Shown piece by piece: positions 1-9,426 of a stretch of 12,249 nt of DNA (position 1 is its first letter; each line of letters begins with the position of its first letter). The notes below the pieces were generated by a model. It did no database searches. It was given only the letters and a program-made list of their open reading frames with translations, and had not been told where the DNA came from. Made by a program: the position numbers and the translations under genes. Source of the DNA: a virus. Taxonomy: Duplodnaviria > Heunggongvirae > Uroviricota > Caudoviricetes. The stretch is taken from positions 1 to 12,249 of the IMG/VR virus record IMGVR_UViG_2737471839_000006; one strand, given 5' to 3'.

Positions 1-109
1 CACCACCCCGTCAGTAGCTGAACAGGAGGGACAGCTGATAGAAACAGAAGCCACTGGAGCACCTCAAAAACACCATCATACACTAAATCAGTAAGTTGGC
101 AGCATCACC
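1..109 (-). mobile_element. IS1 terminal segment, including the terminal inverted repeat; the element continues beyond the window start and includes the first codons of insA on the minus strand
   Basis: Positions 1..109 are the exact reverse complement of the IS1 left end as I recall it (GGTGATGCTGCCAACTTACTGATTTAGTGTATGATGG...GACGGGGTGGTG). The terminal repeat ends at 109 (..CAGCATCACC), where the sequence turns abruptly AT-rich. Recognised from memory, not searched. Confidence 0.85.
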
Positions 110-337
110 CGGGGAACTATAACAATGTTTCTAGCTTGGTGCTGTATGAATTAGTGAATTAGTAGGGAATATATCCACACATTGATTAACACAAAAATAT
201 TTCAGATATTAAATGTAACTCAAAGGATGAGTAATAATGGTTGTGTAGCGTATAACAGGATGCTGAGGTAGTATTAAACAATGAATAAATCTGATTGACA
301 AGCACCAGATAATACTGCGGGTCAATCATTAGACATG

Positions 338-2052: not shown

Positions 2053-2321
2053 TGATGTAGCATATCAATATGGATTCATATGTTCAATTGGTCTGTGGAG
2101 TTTAGTTATGAATAAGATTGATTCTGGTAATACTTTGTAGTTTAAGCTAGAGGCGGGATTCGTGATGTTCAAATCAGTATGTAATGGAGGTTGTGCATTA
2201 GTACTTGCTGCTGGAAATTAAAAATAAAGTTGCAAGTAATCGACGTTTTCCGAGAGGAGGATGTAAGCATCGCTGACCAAAAAGTATCAACGATGCCTGT
2301 TTTGTTTTAACTACAAATTAA

Positions 2322-3824
2322 TTAAATTGCATCTGCAAACTCTGTGATTTTTCGCTCAAGTATGATTGATGAGTTGCTGTTGTCGATTTTTTTATTTTCA
2401 TGATTACGAATAGCCAATGACTCATTAAAGTCTTTTGCGACTGCTGTCTCAATAAATTCAATTTCTGAATCAGAGTGTTTTTTAACAGCTTCTTTGATCT
2501 CATCCAGAGTAACATAGAAAAACTCTTTTCTACGATTTACAAGATTGACTCTCTTTTTATCGAAGACATCATGTAGTTTTTTTTCTAATGATGGAGCGTC
2601 CTCCGAATAAATCATGGCATGCACATCAAAAATAAAAGGAACAGATGCATCACCAAGCTCATTTACACGGTCTTGTGGATCAAGACGTCGTGTCATGCCT
2701 ATTTTATAAACATTCTCCCCAAAAGAACCTATGTTCGAAATAATATAAACATGACCTTGTTTGGTTTGTTGTGCCATGGATAATGCTCTTTGATGCTTTG
2801 ATTCAGCCTGCGACAAACTCTGTTCTAGTTCGGCAATGCGATTTTCGAGGCGCTGCTTCATGTCACCAGTAACTTTTTCCATTTCCTTTCTTGCAGCTTC
2901 AATTGCTTTTTTATAACGGCGCTCTTCTGCCTCTGCGTCTTGCATGGCCTTTTCTATTTCTCGTTGTGCACGCTCCTCCTCTCTCATTTGTGCCCTTATT
3001 TCTGCCTGTTCTTCTTTTTCTTTCTGTTTTTGCTCACGATATTCATGGGTAAGCCACAACTCCTCAAGTTTTTTATTAAGGTATTTAGTATTTATATATA
3101 TGTGATTTTGCTCGTTTAGTTTATTTATGGCCTCAAATGCCTTTGTGATGCGTTCTTCCATTTTAGTGATATTTTTCCACGTGCAATTACTAATTGCAGC
3201 ATCACATTCATTATTAAATGCTCTAGTAGTTAGCCTAATATTTCTGTCTGTCATTTTTTTACCCTCTGCTCGAGAGCCTTCAACAGTCCATTGGGTTGTG
3301 CAATATACTGCACCAGAGTGGGTTTTATCCCGCAGCATTAATTTCTGTTCATCCCTGATGGATTTTATTTTGTTTTTAAATTGCTCTGAATCTTCAAAAT
3401 TAAAATGAGGTTCGTAAAATCCTAGTTCGGCTAGTTCAACATCTTCTGAATAAATAGAAATTTGCTTTACTAGCTTATCATATATTTCTTTCTTCTCTTT
3501 ATAAGTTCTTCTTAGTTCTTGGATTTGTTTATTGATACCATCCATTTTTTCAATGGTGTTTGTTAGTTCATTATTGGCATTTTCTTTTACTTTTTGGGAC
3601 TCTTCTTTTATAATGGAGCATTCTTGCTCTGTTTTCTCAATAAGCTTCTTACATTCCTCTTCCACATTAAAATAATCTGCAAAGCGAGATTTGTATTCTT
3701 CATTTTTTTGATTGCTATCACTTAATTCTAATTGTATTTTTTTGATGCGTTTGATTGCAGCTATATATAGAACAAGAACAACCAATAAAAATATGATTGC
3801 AAGTAATAGTGGAGTTTGAGTCAT
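2322..3824 (-). CDS. Membrane-anchored coiled-coil protein with C-terminal T5orf172/MUG113-type (GIY-YIG superfamily) domain; middle region resembles DUF4041 (500 aa)
   Basis: 500-aa ORF with ATG at 3824..3822 and GGAA upstream. N-terminal hydrophobic helix (LLLAIIFLLVVLVLYIAAI, aa 5-24). Long E/K/Q/R-rich heptad-like segments (aa ~30-130 and ~250-350). C-terminal block GHVYIISNIGSFGENVYKIGMTRR...PFIFDVHAMIYSEDAPSLEKKLHDVFDKKRV...RKEFFYV (aa ~357-440; nt ~2505..2756) matches the T5orf172 signature as I recall it. AT-rich like the HD gene. Confidence 0.85.
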   Translation of the reverse strand: MTQTPLLLAIIFLLVVLVLYIAAIKRIKKIQLELSDSNQKNEEYKSRFADYFNVEEECKKLIEKTEQECSIIKEESQKVKENANNELTNTIEKMDGINKQIQELRRTYKEKKEIYDKLVKQISIYSEDVELAELGFYEPHFNFEDSEQFKNKIKSIRDEQKLMLRDKTHSGAVYCTTQWTVEGSRAEGKKMTDRNIRLTTRAFNNECDAAISNCTWKNITKMEERITKAFEAINKLNEQNHIYINTKYLNKKLEELWLTHEYREQKQKEKEEQAEIRAQMREEERAQREIEKAMQDAEAEERRYKKAIEAARKEMEKVTGDMKQRLENRIAELEQSLSQAESKHQRALSMAQQTKQGHVYIISNIGSFGENVYKIGMTRRLDPQDRVNELGDASVPFIFDVHAMIYSEDAPSLEKKLHDVFDKKRVNLVNRRKEFFYVTLDEIKEAVKKHSDSEIEFIETAVAKDFNESLAIRNHENKKIDNSNSSIILERKITEFADAI

Positions 3825-3872
3825 TCGTGCTATTCCTTACGGACAATTTAAGACGTTTTGTATTAAATCCTG

Positions 3873-3882
3873 TTCAATGTGT
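3873..3882. promoter_or_regulatory. Second copy of the 10-mer TTCAATGTGT, 49-58 bp upstream of the start of the 500-aa gene
   Basis: Read directly; identical to 2022..2031. On the minus strand it reads ACACATTGAAC, again ending in a -35-like TTGAAC. Confidence 0.35.
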
Positions 3883-4152
3883 ATGCGGGTGATTGCTACC
3901 GCTTACAATCTTCATAATTATCAGTTAGATAGACTCGCTAGTAAATAATTTCATTTTTTGCAATATTCTTATTGAATATTTCAATTTATGAAATGAACTC
4001 TTTATCCTTTCAAGGCGAAAGGTTTCTTCTTCGGAAATATTTGCTCTCGTGTGACGTATAAAGGCCTTTGATTTTTAAAAAACAGTAGGGAATAATATAG
4101 TTACTGTCGGCCTGAACACCCGGCGGTGGGGTTGCGCTAAACGGGGACGTTT

Positions 4153-4254
4153 ATGCGCACATACAATCTAAACTCTCTTCTCCCTTCACAGATGCAGAAA
4201 TGCACCTGCGATTTTTTGCATCCAACGTTTGACCTCTGCGGAGGTGAAGCGTGA
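4153..4254 (+). CDS. ylcH: Small 33-aa ORF, YlcH-like, overlapping the ybcN start by 4 nt
   Basis: ATG at 4153 translates to [33 protein letters not shown] and stops within GTGA, which also supplies the ybcN start. Size and position match my recollection of ylcH in DLP12. Too short for the ORF track; hand-translated. Confidence 0.4.
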
Positions 4255-4876: not shown

Positions 4877-5159
4877 TTTGAGAAAAGCAGCGCGTGGTCG
4901 GGAATGCCAGGTAAGAATCCCTGGCGTATGTAATGGCAACCCTGAAACGTCTGTACTGGCACATATCCGGCTGACTGGATTGTGCGGCACCGGTACCAAA
5001 CCGCCAGACCTGATTGCCACCATTGCATGTTCTGCCTGCCACGACGAAATCGACCGCCGCACACATTTTGTCGATGCCGCATATGCAAAAGAATGCGCGC
5101 TGGAAGGTATGGCGAGAACGCAGGTTATCTGGCTGAAAGAGGGGGTAATCAAGGCGTGA
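4869..5159 (+). CDS. ybcO: YbcO-like putative nuclease (Cys-rich, 96 aa from ATG at 4869)
   Basis: Track ORF 4830..5159 begins at a TTG; the ATG at 4869 is preceded by AGGAGGAA and gives 96 aa ([23 protein letters not shown]...), the size I recall for DLP12 YbcO. Conserved Cys/His residues (C..C..C..H) are present. Confidence 0.75.
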
Positions 5160-5518
5160 ATACCTACAACATCACATTACCCTGGCCGCCTAGCAATAAC
5201 CGCTACTACCGGCATAATCGCGGGCGCACACACATCAGCGCAGAAGGGCAGGCATACCGCGATAACGTCGCCCGAATCATTAAAAACGCAATGCTGGATA
5301 TCGGCCTGGCTATTCCTGTAAAAATCCGCATTGAGTGCCACATGCCGGATCGCCGTCGCCGTGACCTGGATAATCTGCAAAAAGCCGCTTTTGACGCACT
5401 CACCAAAGCAGGTTTCTGGCTGGATGATGTTCAGGTCGTTGATTACCGTGTTGTGAAGATGCCCGTTACCAAAGGTGGGAAGCTGGAGTTGACCATCACC
5501 GAACTGGGGAATGAATGA
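5156..5518 (+). CDS. rusA: RusA Holliday-junction resolvase (120 aa, GTG start overlapping the ybcO stop)
   Basis: Track ORF 4982..5518 is a 5'-extended frame; GTG at 5156 (within GCGTGAAT) gives [23 protein letters not shown]...[25 protein letters not shown], which I recognise as RusA. Confidence 0.9.
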
Positions 5519-5655
5519 TGTTTGAGTCTTATATGGCAGAACGTCTTCGCCACCGCTGGATGCGCCTGCGCTTATATCGTTTCCCCGGTTCTGTTTTGAC
5601 CGATTACCGAATACTGAAGAGTTACGCCAAAACCCTGACAGGAGCAGGAGTATGA
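5515..5655 (+). CDS. ylcG: YlcG-like small protein (46 aa)
   Basis: ATGATG start overlaps the rusA stop (AATGAATGATG). Hand translation gives [46 protein letters not shown]. Below the track cutoff. Confidence 0.55.
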
Positions 5656-5740
5656 AGTCAGAGATAACAACCAACTAATACTGTTTTGTTGATTTTTGCT
5701 TGTAATTGGCGTTCTGGTCTGAGTTTTGTGGAGTAAGTTG

Positions 5741-6124
5741 ATGCGTGATATTCAGATGGTTCTTGAGCGTTGGGGAGCGTGGGCGGCTAATAATCATGAA
5801 GATGTGACCTGGTCGTCCATTGCCGCCGGTTTTAAGGGATTAATTACTTCAAAAGTAAAATCTCGCCCGCAATGTTGTGACGATGACGCGATGATCATTT
5901 GCGGGTGCATGGCCCGTCTGAAAAAGAACAACAGCGATTTGCACGATTTATTAGTAGATTATTATGTAGTCGGTATGACATTCATGTCACTGGCAGGTAA
6001 GCATTGCTGCTCTGATGGTTATATCGGGAAAAGGTTACAGAAGGCTGAGGGCATAATTGAAGGGATGTTAATGGCATTAGATATCCGGTTAGAGATGGAT
6101 ATCGTTGTTAATAACTCTAATTAA
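5741..6124 (+). CDS. quuD: Late-gene antiterminator Q (QuuD-like, 127 aa)
   Basis: Track ORF 5726..6124 starts at an upstream TTG; the ATG at 5741 gives 127 aa ([24 protein letters not shown]...) with Cys clusters ([18 protein letters not shown]) typical of Q-family antiterminators. Position after rusA/ylcG and before the lysis genes is as expected. Confidence 0.85.
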
Positions 6125-6157
6125 TATGCCAATTGTTTACTAAAAATTATTAAAAAT

Positions 6158-6175
6158 GGGGCGTTGAGACGCCCC
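6158..6175 (-). terminator. GC hairpin (GGGGCGT-tgag-ACGCCCC) followed on the minus strand by ATTTTTAATAATTTTT; candidate intrinsic terminator for minus-strand (nmpC) transcription
   Basis: Read directly. The T-rich tract is only on the minus-strand 3' side, 34 nt beyond the quuD stop. Confidence 0.4.
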
Positions 6176-6265
6176 CAAAAATAAAGGGTAATATATAACA
6201 GAAGGTTTATATAGTTAGAAGCAAGGTTGTGCTTCTAAAGGAAGTGGCTTGAGGGAGCCACTTAT

Positions 6266-6304
6266 ATGTTGGGGAGGCAACGCCTCCCGCAACATATCTT
6301 TTTC
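6266..6304 (+). terminator. tR'-like intrinsic terminator candidate (GGGAGGC-aac-GCCTCCC within an extended imperfect stem, then ATCTTTTTCG)
   Basis: Read directly. Lies about 140 nt downstream of quuD, where lambdoid phages place pR'/qut/tR'. Two further hairpins (6218..6237, 6244..6261) sit just upstream. Confidence 0.4.
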
Positions 6305-6313
6305 GTAATCAGA

Positions 6314-7411
6314 TTAGAACTGGTAAACCAGACCTACAGCAACGATGTCATCAGTGCTTACACCGAGTGCTTTAGTGAAGTCATTTTTGTCAAGCAGGTT
6401 GATTTTGTAATCAACGAAAGTAGACATATTTTTGTTGAAGTAATAGGTTGCACCTACATCAACATATTTGACTAAGTCCTGATCGCCCCATACTCCAAGA
6501 TCCTTACCTTTAGATTGCAGGTAAGCAACGGACGGACGCAGACCGAAATCGAACTGATATTGTGCAACAGCTTCGAAGTTTTGGGCTTTATTAGCAACGA
6601 AGTGATCAGCAAATACAGTCATATTCTGGGTTTCAGAATAGGTAGTGGCCAGGTAAATGTTGTTAGCATCATATTTCAGACCTGCGGCCCAAACTTCTGC
6701 ATTTTTACCGGAAGCAAATACTTCAGGAAGAACTTTCCCTGCATTAACTTGAGTGTCGGTACGATCAGATTTCGCATAAGTTGCACCGATACCGAATCCT
6801 TCGTATTCATAGGTAGCAGAGAAACCGAAGCCATCACCGTTACCTTCAGTGTAGTTATCGAAATCGCTACGATCGTTTTTGCCTTGGTACTGAGCAGCAA
6901 AGTTCAGACCATCAACCAGACCAAAGAAGTCGTTGTTACGATAGGTTGCAACACCAGTGGTGCGACCAGTCATGAACACATCTGTTTGGGTCCAGGTATC
7001 GCCACCGAATTCTGGCAGAACGTCAGTCCACGCACCGATGTCGTATGCTACACCGTAGTTACGGCCGTAATCGATTGAGCCGTAGTCACCGAATTTCAGG
7101 CCTGCAAATGCAAGACGGGTTTTGTCTTTGGAGGAACCTTGAGATTCAGCGCGGTTGCCTTTGAATTCATATTCCCACTGACCGAAACCAGTCAGTTGAT
7201 CGTTGATTTGGGTTTCACCTTTGAAGCCAAGACGGGCATAAGTAGTATCACCATCATCTGCATCATTAGAGGAGAAGTAGTGCTTAGCATTAACTTTCCC
7301 GTACAGATCCAGCTTGTTACTGTCTTTATTATAAATTTCAGCTGCCTGAGCAGACATCGCCATCAGTACTGATGCAGCTACAGCAGAAATTGCCACTGTT
7401 AATTTTTTCAT
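6314..7411 (-). CDS. nmpC: Outer-membrane general porin NmpC/OmpD-like, intact (365 aa with signal peptide)
   Basis: ORF track. N-terminal signal peptide [23 protein letters not shown] then AEIYNKD...; C-terminal ...AVGLVYQF, the typical porin terminal Phe. ATG is preceded by AAGGG. Recognised as the DLP12 porin gene, here without an IS interruption. Confidence 0.9.
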
Positions 7412-7840
7412 CGTGAGCCCTTTTTTTTGAACTATTATTAAAAAATGATGTCACTGCGCGATAAATATTCATCTAATCAATGTGATTATTTCAAGATGTA
7501 AGTTTTGGTTTCTCGTTTGATTTGTGAAGTAGATCTCTATTTTTATCTGAACTTTTTTCTATCGAATCCTATTCATAGCTCTTGGCTGAATAAAAATAAA
7601 TCTATTAGCCAATTTATATTAACGACTGTTATTTATAAGTGCTCTATAATTTGAAGGTTCAATTTAAATCGGCTAAAAATAACACTGGAAATTATTTGTT
7701 GGTTATTTGTTGAGGTTTTCTTATGTATTTGTGGTGGTGTTTTGAACACTCGGTAGCATTCTCGCAAATATCATTTAGTGGTTTACGTACGTAAAAAATT
7801 GGTTATGCTGTTAAGAGTGGTTACTTCGTCACACAGCTTA

Positions 7841-7873
7841 AACCCGCCGTCGAGCGGGTTTTTCCATTTTTTG
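7841..7873 (+). terminator. Intrinsic terminator candidate about 110 bp upstream of the holin gene (AACCCGC-cgtcga-GCGGGTT then TTTCCATTTTTTG)
   Basis: Read directly; the T-tract is on the plus strand only. Confidence 0.55.
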
Positions 7874-7984
7874 AGTCTCGATATTAGCTGATAACCCAAT
7901 ACCTGAGTTATTCACTGACTCCGAGTCTGTTACGTTTCGTAGTATTCCCTCAATTTACACCCGCTTTGTCTGCGAGGTGGGGTT

Positions 7985-8200: not shown

Positions 8201-8204
8201 TTCA

Positions 8205-8549
8205 ATGACTCAAAACTATGAACTGATTGTGAAAGGGATCCGCAATTTTGAGAATAAAGTTACGGTAACTTTAGCGTTACGGGACAAAAAACGCTTTGAC
8301 GGTGAAATTTTTGACCTGGACATCTCGCTGGACCGTGTTGAAGGTGCCGCGCTGGAGTTTTATGAGGCAGCAGCCAGAAGGAGCATCAGACAGGTCTTCC
8401 TGGATGTTGCTGCCGGGTTATGTGAAGGGGATGAGCTGTCGCCGGAAAAGCGCCCCATAATTTTAGAGGCGCAGAATGTGTGGATAACCTACAAAGGAAA
8501 GCTACCGGGAAGAATTACTGGTTCTCTGAAGACTCCGCCGAAATGGTAA
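8205..8549 (+). CDS. Hypothetical protein (114 aa) inserted between holin and endolysin; no family recognised
   Basis: ORF track. ATG at 8205 lies 5 nt after the holin stop, with GGAGAG 7 nt upstream, so it is positioned for co-expression with late genes. No motif I can assign. Confidence 0.6.
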   Translation: MTQNYELIVKGIRNFENKVTVTLALRDKKRFDGEIFDLDISLDRVEGAALEFYEAAARRSIRQVFLDVAAGLCEGDELSPEKRPIILEAQNVWITYKGKLPGRITGSLKTPPKW

Positions 8550-8787
8550 TTTCACCAGCATATTTTTCTTCCAGTAATACCGCCAGCCACTTGAAAGAAT
8601 TTTGTTGTTGCTGGGACCATTTGGGGTTGAGTGATTCAAGCTGGAGCGATGCCAGTGTTGGTTGCATTTGTTCCTTGGGAATTGAGAATGCCAGATATGA
8701 AAATGCGACAGTAAGGGCATTTACATCATCCCGAAGCCTGGAAATGCAGTCGAGCAACTCCTGTAGAGAAATGGTGCTATTGTCCAT
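8515..8787 (-). CDS. Hypothetical protein (~90 aa), convergent with and overlapping the 3' end of the 8205..8549 gene
   Basis: Track ORF 8515..8793 starts at a TTG; the in-frame ATG at 8787 is preceded by GAGAGGA at 6-nt spacing on the minus strand. Ordinary Leu/Gln-rich composition; no recognisable family. Confidence 0.5.
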   Translation of the reverse strand: MDNSTISLQELLDCISRLRDDVNALTVAFSYLAFSIPKEQMQPTLASLQLESLNPKWSQQQQNSFKWLAVLLEEKYAGEITISAESSENQ

Positions 8788-8892
8788 AAACAATCCTCTC
8801 TATTGTATTTAACTATTCCTTGCCTGATTCAACAGGCCGGGACAGATAAACATATCCAGGGTTCAGAAACCGATAAATCCTGATAAATATCC

Positions 8893-9426
8893 ATGAACGC
8901 AAAAATCAGATACGGCCTGTCGGCTGCCGTTCTGGCACTGATTGCCGTCGGTGCGCCTGCGCCTGATATTCTCGACCAGTTTCTGGATGAAAAAGAAGGT
9001 AACCACACAACGGCATACCGCGATGGTTCCGGCATCTGGACCATCTGTCGGGGTGCCACGGTGGTGGATGGAAAACCCGTTTTTCCCGGTATGAAACTGT
9101 CGAAGGAAAAATGCGACCAGGTTAACGCCATTGAACGGGATAAGGCGCTGGCATGGGTGGAGCGCAATATTAAAGTGCCACTGACCGAACCACAGAAAGC
9201 GGGTATCGCGTCATTTTGTCCCTATAACATTGGCCCCGGTAAGTGTTTCCCGTCGACGTTTTATAAGCGGCTGAATGCCGGTGATCGTAAAGGTGCATGC
9301 GAGGCGATTCGCTGGTGGATAAAAGATGGTGGGCGCGATTGCCGCATACGTTCAAATAACTGCTATGGACAGGTTATTCGTCGTGACCAGGAAAGCGCAT
9401 TAGCCTGTTGGGGGATAGATCAGTGA
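8893..9426 (+). CDS. SAR endolysin (T4-lysozyme-like muramidase, 177 aa)
   Basis: ORF track. N-terminal weakly hydrophobic Gly/Ala-rich segment ([17 protein letters not shown]), typical of a signal-anchor-release domain. The following E-x8-D-x5-T triad ([16 protein letters not shown]) has T4-lysozyme spacing. Confidence 0.9.

Follow-up and report, generated by a model that had tools for sequence, protein, structure and literature searches.

The window (the whole stretch of DNA analysed here, 12,249 nucleotides in length) is an early-right/late-regulatory segment of a lambdoid prophage, in which a gene for SNIPE, first described as PD-lambda-1, and a gene for a solitary SAMHD1-like HD dNTPase stand on the same strand (Table 1). 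Both genes are low in GC (0.35 for SNIPE and 0.30 for the HD gene, versus 0.49 for the nin genes). SNIPE occupies the ren-nin cargo site, the same site as in Escherichia phage PhiR26_1 (PV340555.1), and the window can confidently be labelled a lambdoid prophage that carries SNIPE at this position. The gene is part of a mobile cassette common to prophages without the HD gene, as its sequence is 97.5% identical to positions 5001-6962 of one E. coli locus (L003, strain FDAARGOS_1290) and to positions 5998-7959 of another (L004), where it follows directly after P-ren.

Table 1. Genes, protein domains and putative signals of the window, in window coordinates
Feature	Position	Strand	Basis or remark
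IS1 end	1-110		
Solitary SAMHD1-like HD dNTPase gene, 515 aa	415..1962	minus	Pfam HD 8e-07; PDB phmmer
Mobile SNIPE cassette, common to HD-less prophages	2260..4221	no strand	homology starts at 2260
Stable 13-bp hairpin, no U tract	2265..2298	minus	24 nt past the SNIPE stop
SNIPE / PD-lambda-1 gene, 500 aa + stop	2322..3824	minus	ORF; PADLOC; phrog_1847; PhiR26_1 CDS
C-terminal T5orf172/MUG113 (GIY-YIG-type) nuclease domain, aa 356-482	2379..2759	minus	E414 codon at 2583-2585
Long alpha-helical linker between DUF4041 and nuclease, aa 246-355	2760..3089	minus	AF2 helices H246-317, H321-355
Pfam DUF4041 core, aa 198-252	3069-3233	minus	Pfam
Globular DUF4041 domain, aa 143-245	3090..3398	minus	Pfam PF13250; AF2 alpha/beta, pLDDT 90-96
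Membrane-proximal long cytoplasmic helix, aa 25-133	3426..3752	minus	AF2; contains L77Q and R120K
Single N-terminal TM helix, aa 6-24, preceded by 5 residues	3753..3809	minus	hydropathy; AF2 helix
Upstream region, equivalent of the 282 bp native promoter of the published clone	3825..4106	minus	clone coordinates (PMC9519451)
Promoter-like site TTTACT-17-GATAAT	3945-3917	minus	promoter scan; tentative
ybcN (NinB-like), ninE, ybcO, rusA, ylcG, Q	after SNIPE in window order	plus	
Porin	6314-7411	minus	
P21-type holin, DUF1327 gene, lysozyme, Rz	after the porin in window order		
KilA-N protein, DUF1398 protein	after Rz in window order		

The expression signals of the SNIPE gene are tentative, because promoter-like and terminator-like sites are no commoner in the window than chance would give: the promoter scan returned 18 sites against 18.6 expected from shuffled sequence, and the terminator scan 3 against 2.3. 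The size of its loop caused the terminator scan to miss the hairpin past the SNIPE stop. On the minus strand this hairpin has a folding energy of -19.8 kcal/mol (z -3.7), compared with -12.6 kcal/mol (z -0.8) on the plus strand, and it ends at the conserved boundary of the cassette; we regard it as a putative terminator or stabiliser. An Rfam search of the whole window gave no match.

In the open reading frame listing of the window, the SNIPE frame runs from ATG to stop over exactly the interval that the sequence-only reading had proposed, and it is a real gene on the minus strand, which that reading had not specified. A Pfam search of the protein identified DUF4041 (PF13250) at aa 198-252 (E 1.2e-19; 70.4 bits against a cutoff of 27), T5orf172 (PF10544) at aa 357-449 (E 6.9e-17) and MUG113 (PF13455) at aa 373-449 (E 7e-19), all far over the Pfam gathering scores, which upholds the earlier domain assignment. 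Because the combination of DUF4041 with T5orf172 is common to more than 8000 database proteins, the frame is not a product of chance. The single N-terminal transmembrane helix was likewise borne out. Residues 6-24 (LLLAIIFLLVVLVLYIAAI) form one strongly hydrophobic segment with a mean Kyte-Doolittle value of 3.4 and basic residues (K25, R26, K28 and K29) on its C-terminal side, and every other segment in the hydropathy scan of the protein lies at 1.1 or below. An equivalent hydrophobic helix begins 43 of the 44 aligned SNIPE homologues, and the window protein is predicted to be anchored by a single-pass N-terminal transmembrane helix.

An AlphaFold2 model built on the 44 sequences (mean pLDDT 77) places a helix that starts in the membrane segment and reaches aa 133, broken into H4-47, H49-52 and H54-133 and followed by a short disordered stretch; at the other end of the protein, an alpha/beta domain at aa 357-482 gives way to a disordered tail. 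This domain layout is that of the published SNIPE description. The coiled coil of about 300 aa that had been read from the sequence is correct as to the presence of long helices, but these form two stretches of about 110 aa each (aa 25-133 and 246-355) on either side of the globular DUF4041 domain, which spans about 100 aa.

The C-terminal domain has the alpha/beta fold of the GIY-YIG nucleases and keeps their catalytic motif, Tyr...Tyr...Arg...Glu...Asn. In the alignment of 44 sequences (50-57% identity to the query), the motif residues Y360, R379, R380, R386, E414, N427 and N430 are invariant, as are G357, H358, K374, G376 and E389, and position 373 is either Y or F. A sequence search of the PDB returned no solved SNIPE relative, its best hit (E 0.08) lying in low-complexity helices, and Foldseek with the full-length model gave no significant match.

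By every sequence-level criterion that we checked, the window gene is a near-identical copy of SNIPE. The protein matches the PADLOC model PD-Lambda-1 PDLC03976 with an E value of 5e-198 (aa 1-484 against model positions 1-484 of 491) and a second model, PDLC03977, with 1.8e-194, and it falls into PHROGs family phrog_1847 (E 9e-196). The frame has the length of the PD-lambda-1 ORF of strain ECOR26 (1503 bp), and its Pfam coordinates are those of the published HHpred table, which places domains at aa 197-252, 357-448 and 373-449 (PMC9519451). Identity to the reference protein, RCP76574.1, was set by means of the published primers, the annotated PhiR26_1 genome and the residue numbering. The CDS XSB42081.1 of PhiR26_1, annotated 'PD-lambda-1', encodes the same protein as the L003 allele. 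This allele has no mismatches to the published primers (25 footprints, 781 nt), compared with 20 for the window. Between the window and XSB42081.1, identity is 98.8% in amino acids and 98.1% in nucleotides. The exact window protein occurs on 210 contigs, and the cluster at 90% identity has 975 members.

The biology of this protein has been worked out in two publications, and the earlier statement that its function in bacteria is not established is therefore outdated. PD-lambda-1 was discovered among E. coli fosmids in a functional selection that used lambda-vir (Vassallo et al. 2022, PMC9519451). It came from strain ECOR26 (contig QOXL01000020, ORF 49060-50562), and a clone spanning 48998-50844, in which flanks of just 62 and 282 bp adjoin the ORF, was functional; the single ORF was sufficient against phage lambda, and adsorption was not affected (PMC9519451). 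The protein was later renamed SNIPE and its mechanism resolved (Saxton et al., Nature 2026, PMC13190303). Reference SNIPE is distributed uniformly in the inner membrane, and PhoA-LacZalpha fusions place its N terminus outside and its bulk in the cytoplasm (PMC13190303). Defence is abolished by E414A or by deletion of DUF4041, a domain that binds DNA, confers nucleoid binding and contacts the phage tape measure protein (PMC13190303). The amounts of adsorbed phage and of injected 32P-labelled DNA are the same with and without SNIPE, the injected DNA being cut to a smear in an E414-dependent manner, and ParB-marked lambda genomes do not appear in SNIPE cells (PMC13190303). TurboID-ManZ labels SNIPE with or without infection, as well as the tape measure protein of lambda during infection; the model in that paper assigns ManYZ association to SNIPE's N-terminal region (Fig. 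5g legend), and deletion of manYZ lowers the defence against generalist lambda (PMC13190303). Phage escape mutations lie in the tape measure protein, gain-of-function mutations of SNIPE lie in DUF4041 and the helix that follows it, and a crosslinker at N250 captures the tape measure protein (PMC13190303). Among the BASEL phages, SNIPE acts at least weakly, and without dependence on ManYZ, against most siphoviruses, but against no myoviruses or podoviruses (PMC13190303).

The guess of a membrane-tethered nuclease effector thus agrees with published experiments, and the toxicity, nuclease and phage-challenge assays that had been suggested have already been carried out on a protein 98.8% identical to that of the window (PMC13190303). 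The SNIPE finding is real but already known, and there is nothing new in the gene itself. Because its biology is already published, the result adds little further value for the SNIPE gene.

Each step of the mechanism has been shown for the reference protein, and we infer it for the window allele from their 98.8% identity. The N-terminal helix would anchor the protein within the inner membrane, its remainder lying in the cytoplasm, and this anchoring would hold the nuclease off the chromosome in an auto-inhibited state. SNIPE would associate with the mannose permease ManYZ, the genome-entry route of lambda-like phages. On injection, DUF4041 would bind both DNA and the phage tape measure protein, which would position the C-terminal GIY-YIG/T5orf172 nuclease, with its catalytic E414, to cut the entering phage DNA. 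The host cell would survive and siphoviruses would be excluded, most strongly those that depend on ManYZ, whereas a resident prophage would not be affected because its DNA is already inside.

We therefore consider it highly probable that the window SNIPE is a single-gene, direct and non-abortive defence carried as ren-nin cargo of a lambdoid prophage, and that the HD dNTPase is a separate cargo. Among the other explanations, an inactive or differently specific SNIPE, whether a decaying prophage gene or a retargeted version, is unlikely but survives best. Six of the 500 residues differ from XSB42081.1 (L77Q, R120K, S480I, P489L, T493I and P494T), two of them in the N-terminal helix, within the putative adapter region, and four in the C-terminal tail. 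Moreover, two PD-Lambda-1 homologues of S. thermophilus that are 98.5% identical to each other have completely different activity (PMC12322248), so that near-identity is no guarantee of activity or phage range, and in E. coli, IS1 or IS5 sometimes inactivates SNIPE genes. The window frame, however, is intact, and all six substitutions lie outside the transmembrane helix, DUF4041, the linker helices and the nuclease core. The nine residues singled out in the SNIPE paper, which include catalytic, DNA-binding-domain and tape-measure-interface positions (E414, E223, N250, L253, W257, E264, K305, I308 and T319), are all found at the same positions of the window protein; seven of them, from N250 to T319, which were mutated or replaced in that study (PMC13190303), fall in its linker. 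The codon differences from PhiR26_1 comprise 21 synonymous and 6 non-synonymous changes, which suggests continued constraint on the window gene, and the recurrence of the exact protein on many contigs also speaks against decay. An active SNIPE with the reference specificity thus remains our preferred reading of this allele, with the activity of the allele itself deduced from its near-identical relative.

The neighbouring HD protein raises the question of whether the two genes form a cooperating system, in which the dNTPase would respond to or complement DNA degradation. Calling the neighbour a dNTPase was reasonable, because in a phmmer search of the PDB its residues 19-430 match 2hek (5e-30), EF1143 (2o6i; 1e-26) and SAMHD1 (4e-26), and it is an HD protein of the SAMHD1/EF1143 type. 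The PADLOC dGTPase model matches it at 9e-4 only, and its PHROGs family, phrog_35128, is of unknown function. Between positions 110 and 2260, the window has no ORF of at least 60 aa outside the HD gene other than short opposite-strand ORFs that overlap it, and no nucleotidyltransferase partner ORF was found there.

Several observations are in favour of cooperation. The HD gene occurs in 21 of 5426 complete E. coli genomes, and in all 21 it stands immediately downstream of SNIPE, and only of this SNIPE allele; the pair is present in at least two lambdoid prophage backgrounds, and the two genes share their low GC and their strand. The HD gene exists as two alleles with 89.9% nucleotide identity, yet the 359 bp between the genes are identical in both and SNIPE differs at only 10 nt. 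In contrast, SNIPE is found in 131 of these genomes, 110 of which lack the HD gene. The linkage in E. coli is thus one-way: the HD gene is always with SNIPE, whereas SNIPE is mostly without the HD gene. PhiR26_1 has no HD gene, the reference clone functions with its short flanks, and a tblastn search with E values up to 1e-3 found an HD homologue within 8 kb of SNIPE at none of 80 diverse loci from many phyla. A homologue 43% identical to the HD protein lies in a Klebsiella phage record with no SNIPE nearby, and a strong hairpin sits in the interval that separates the two genes. The survey for recurrent HD linkage that had been proposed, here covering the complete E. coli genomes, the phage collection and the 80 loci centred on SNIPE, therefore came out negative across the diverse loci. 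As to the earlier alternative of a cooperating pair or two independent cargo genes, the clone flanks, PhiR26_1, the E. coli counts and the 80 loci point towards independent cargo, and the pair does not hold up.

We regard a cooperating two-gene system as quite improbable, and a functional tie in one direction, from the HD dNTPase to SNIPE, as slightly more doubtful still. In such a case, a SAMHD1-like enzyme might be switched on allosterically by the nucleotides freed as SNIPE shreds the entering DNA. If true, the HD protein would stand behind the entry nuclease as a further barrier to phages that evade the latter in part, and this would be a new coupling of an entry nuclease with nucleotide depletion.

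The 78 aa at which the two HD alleles differ are concentrated at aa 135-227 and aa 325-418, both of them non-catalytic regions. A crude Nei-Gojobori estimate gave a dN/dS of 0.01 for aa 228-324, compared with 0.34 and 0.59 for these variable regions, and dS is about 0.4-0.5 mid-gene. No segment reaches a dN/dS of 1 (range 0.01 to 0.59), and positive selection is not demonstrable for the HD gene. The pattern looks like that of a recombined, older divergent segment with relaxed or variable surfaces.

Two further explanations of the SNIPE gene can be set aside. An abortive-infection sensor-effector, which would sense infection, release or activate its nuclease and kill the host, draws on the fact that the untethered nuclease is lethal: reference SNIPE without its transmembrane helix is toxic, localises to the chromosome and breaks it (PMC13190303). 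However, infected cells with reference SNIPE survive and keep growing when the multiplicity of infection is high, in contrast to the abortive control, it is the injected labelled phage DNA that is degraded, and prophage induction is unaffected (PMC13190303). This explanation, already refuted for the reference allele, is very improbable here. Least credible of all is that the gene is a selfish T5orf172 gene of the homing-endonuclease-like or DNA-binding kind, or that it encodes an SMC-like 'chromosome segregation ATPase'. In favour, T5orf172 domains are reported to occur in phage homing-endonuclease-like genes (PMC10448857), some sources give homologues the ATPase name, and an SMC-related protein matches weakly in NCBIfam. 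Against this, a homing endonuclease is at odds with the membrane anchor, with DUF4041 and with the defence phenotype that has been published, the NCBIfam scan yielded spurious sub-threshold matches only (to MazE and to the SMC-related protein ASRP, the latter at 20.7 bits against a cutoff of 300), the ASRP match and that of PADLOC JetC (E 0.07) are confined to helical regions, and the Pfam search found no ATPase domain.

Of the known systems, the closest is ECOR26 SNIPE (XSB42081.1 of PhiR26_1; RCP76574.1). The window protein shares with it the length of 500 aa, the domain coordinates and all probed residues, and in both cases the gene stands in a lambdoid prophage between ren and the nin genes, on the strand opposite to theirs. 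In that phage, as in the majority of E. coli genomes, SNIPE directly follows P-ren, and in PhiR26_1 ren is its immediate downstream neighbour, whereas the window has the HD gene downstream, together with the IS1 end. The PD-Lambda-1 homologues of S. thermophilus belong to the same family by defence annotation and are likewise single-gene systems that protect against host siphoviruses, but their host is Gram-positive and their sequences are distant (PMC12322248). The HD neighbour resembles the defence dNTPases (the dGTPase of Tal et al. and CloA/CloB of Clover), which act by dNTP depletion (PMC12265719, PMC13519002), in being a SAMHD1-type HD-domain protein; it differs from them in its marginal match to the PADLOC dGTPase model and in having no Clover-type NTase partner ORF.

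SLX1 and other GIY-YIG nucleases share about 10% sequence identity with the window SNIPE, and SLX1 is a soluble, structure-specific endonuclease that acts with SLX4 and has neither a membrane anchor nor DUF4041. Zorya and Kiwa, membrane-associated defences whose site of action is where the phage genome is injected, are multi-protein systems (the ZorAB motor with ZorCD; KwaA/KwaB) that have no DUF4041 or T5orf172, the PADLOC ZorA model matches the window SNIPE at an E value of 0.08 only, and Kiwa binds DNA and does not cut it. What they have in common with SNIPE is that a membrane location, not sequence or modification, limits their action to entering phage DNA (PMC12904381), and SNIPE is of general interest for the same property, as it tells self from non-self by the site of DNA entry.

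In complete E. coli genomes, the gene for the SAMHD1-like HD dNTPase was found in 21 of 5,426, and SNIPE, the membrane-anchored anti-phage nuclease gene, adjoins it in every one. No nucleotidyltransferase partner gene was found beside the HD gene in the window; its product is barely recognized by the PADLOC dGTPase model (9e-4) and falls in a PHROG annotated as of unknown function. We regard the HD gene as a plausible candidate for a nucleotide-depletion defence gene.

Two alleles of this gene were compared, that of the window and that of locus L087 (5001-6548), which share 89.9% nucleotide identity. Their products differ at 78 amino acids, concentrated at residues 135-227 and 325-418, with the segment between them (residues 228-324) nearly invariant (dN/dS 0.01). 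In the flanks of the two alleles the intergenic DNA is identical and SNIPE nearly so (10 nt apart). The HD gene is a mosaic with two variable surface regions.

Features of the window discussed here
Feature	Position	Strand	Description
HD gene	415-1962	minus	SAMHD1/EF1143-like HD dNTPase, 515 aa, solitary
Hairpin	2265-2298	minus	stable (-19.8 kcal/mol, z -3.7), 13 bp, 24 nt 3' of the stop codon of SNIPE
Porin gene	6314-7411	minus	OmpC/NmpC type, between Q and holin
DUF1327 gene	8205-8549	plus	between holin and lysozyme

Window positions 1-110 match one end (110 bp) of an IS1 copy (L002, strain Evo1, 7692-7801) at 100% identity, and therefore the window starts inside an IS1 that inserted some 300 bp from the HD gene, on its downstream side; the IS1 end also accounts for the 92,635 matching places returned by the whole-window search of E. 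coli genomes. In E. coli strain Evo1 an IS1 copy divides SNIPE itself in two (L002 6212-8491), and a further genome (NZ_OZ392478.1, hit H23) carries an IS5 interruption of the gene, which indicates that the defence gene is sometimes inactivated by insertion sequences.

The porin and DUF1327 genes are additional prophage cargo at late-operon moron positions. The prophage of strain WP5-S17-ESBL-11 (L001), otherwise 96.6% identical to the window, differs in the lysis region (window 8201-9421), where DUF1327 is present in the window and the lysozyme is not the same; mosaic exchange has therefore occurred inside the lysis cassette.

The hairpin 3' of SNIPE lacks a U tract on the minus strand, and its plus-strand form is less stable because of G-U pairs. 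Its end falls at the boundary of the cassette common to the window and SNIPE-only prophages, those without the HD gene. Between SNIPE and ybcN, these prophages and PhiR26_1, the reference phage carrying the studied SNIPE allele, have an additional Rha/P22AR-C gene and a hypothetical gene, a pair bracketed by two copies of an 89-bp stretch (6874-6962 and 8808-8896 in L003, a SNIPE-only locus from FDAARGOS_1290). The same stretch is present as a single copy in the window (4133-4221), suggesting that the Rha/P22AR-C module is gained or lost by recombination at this repeat.
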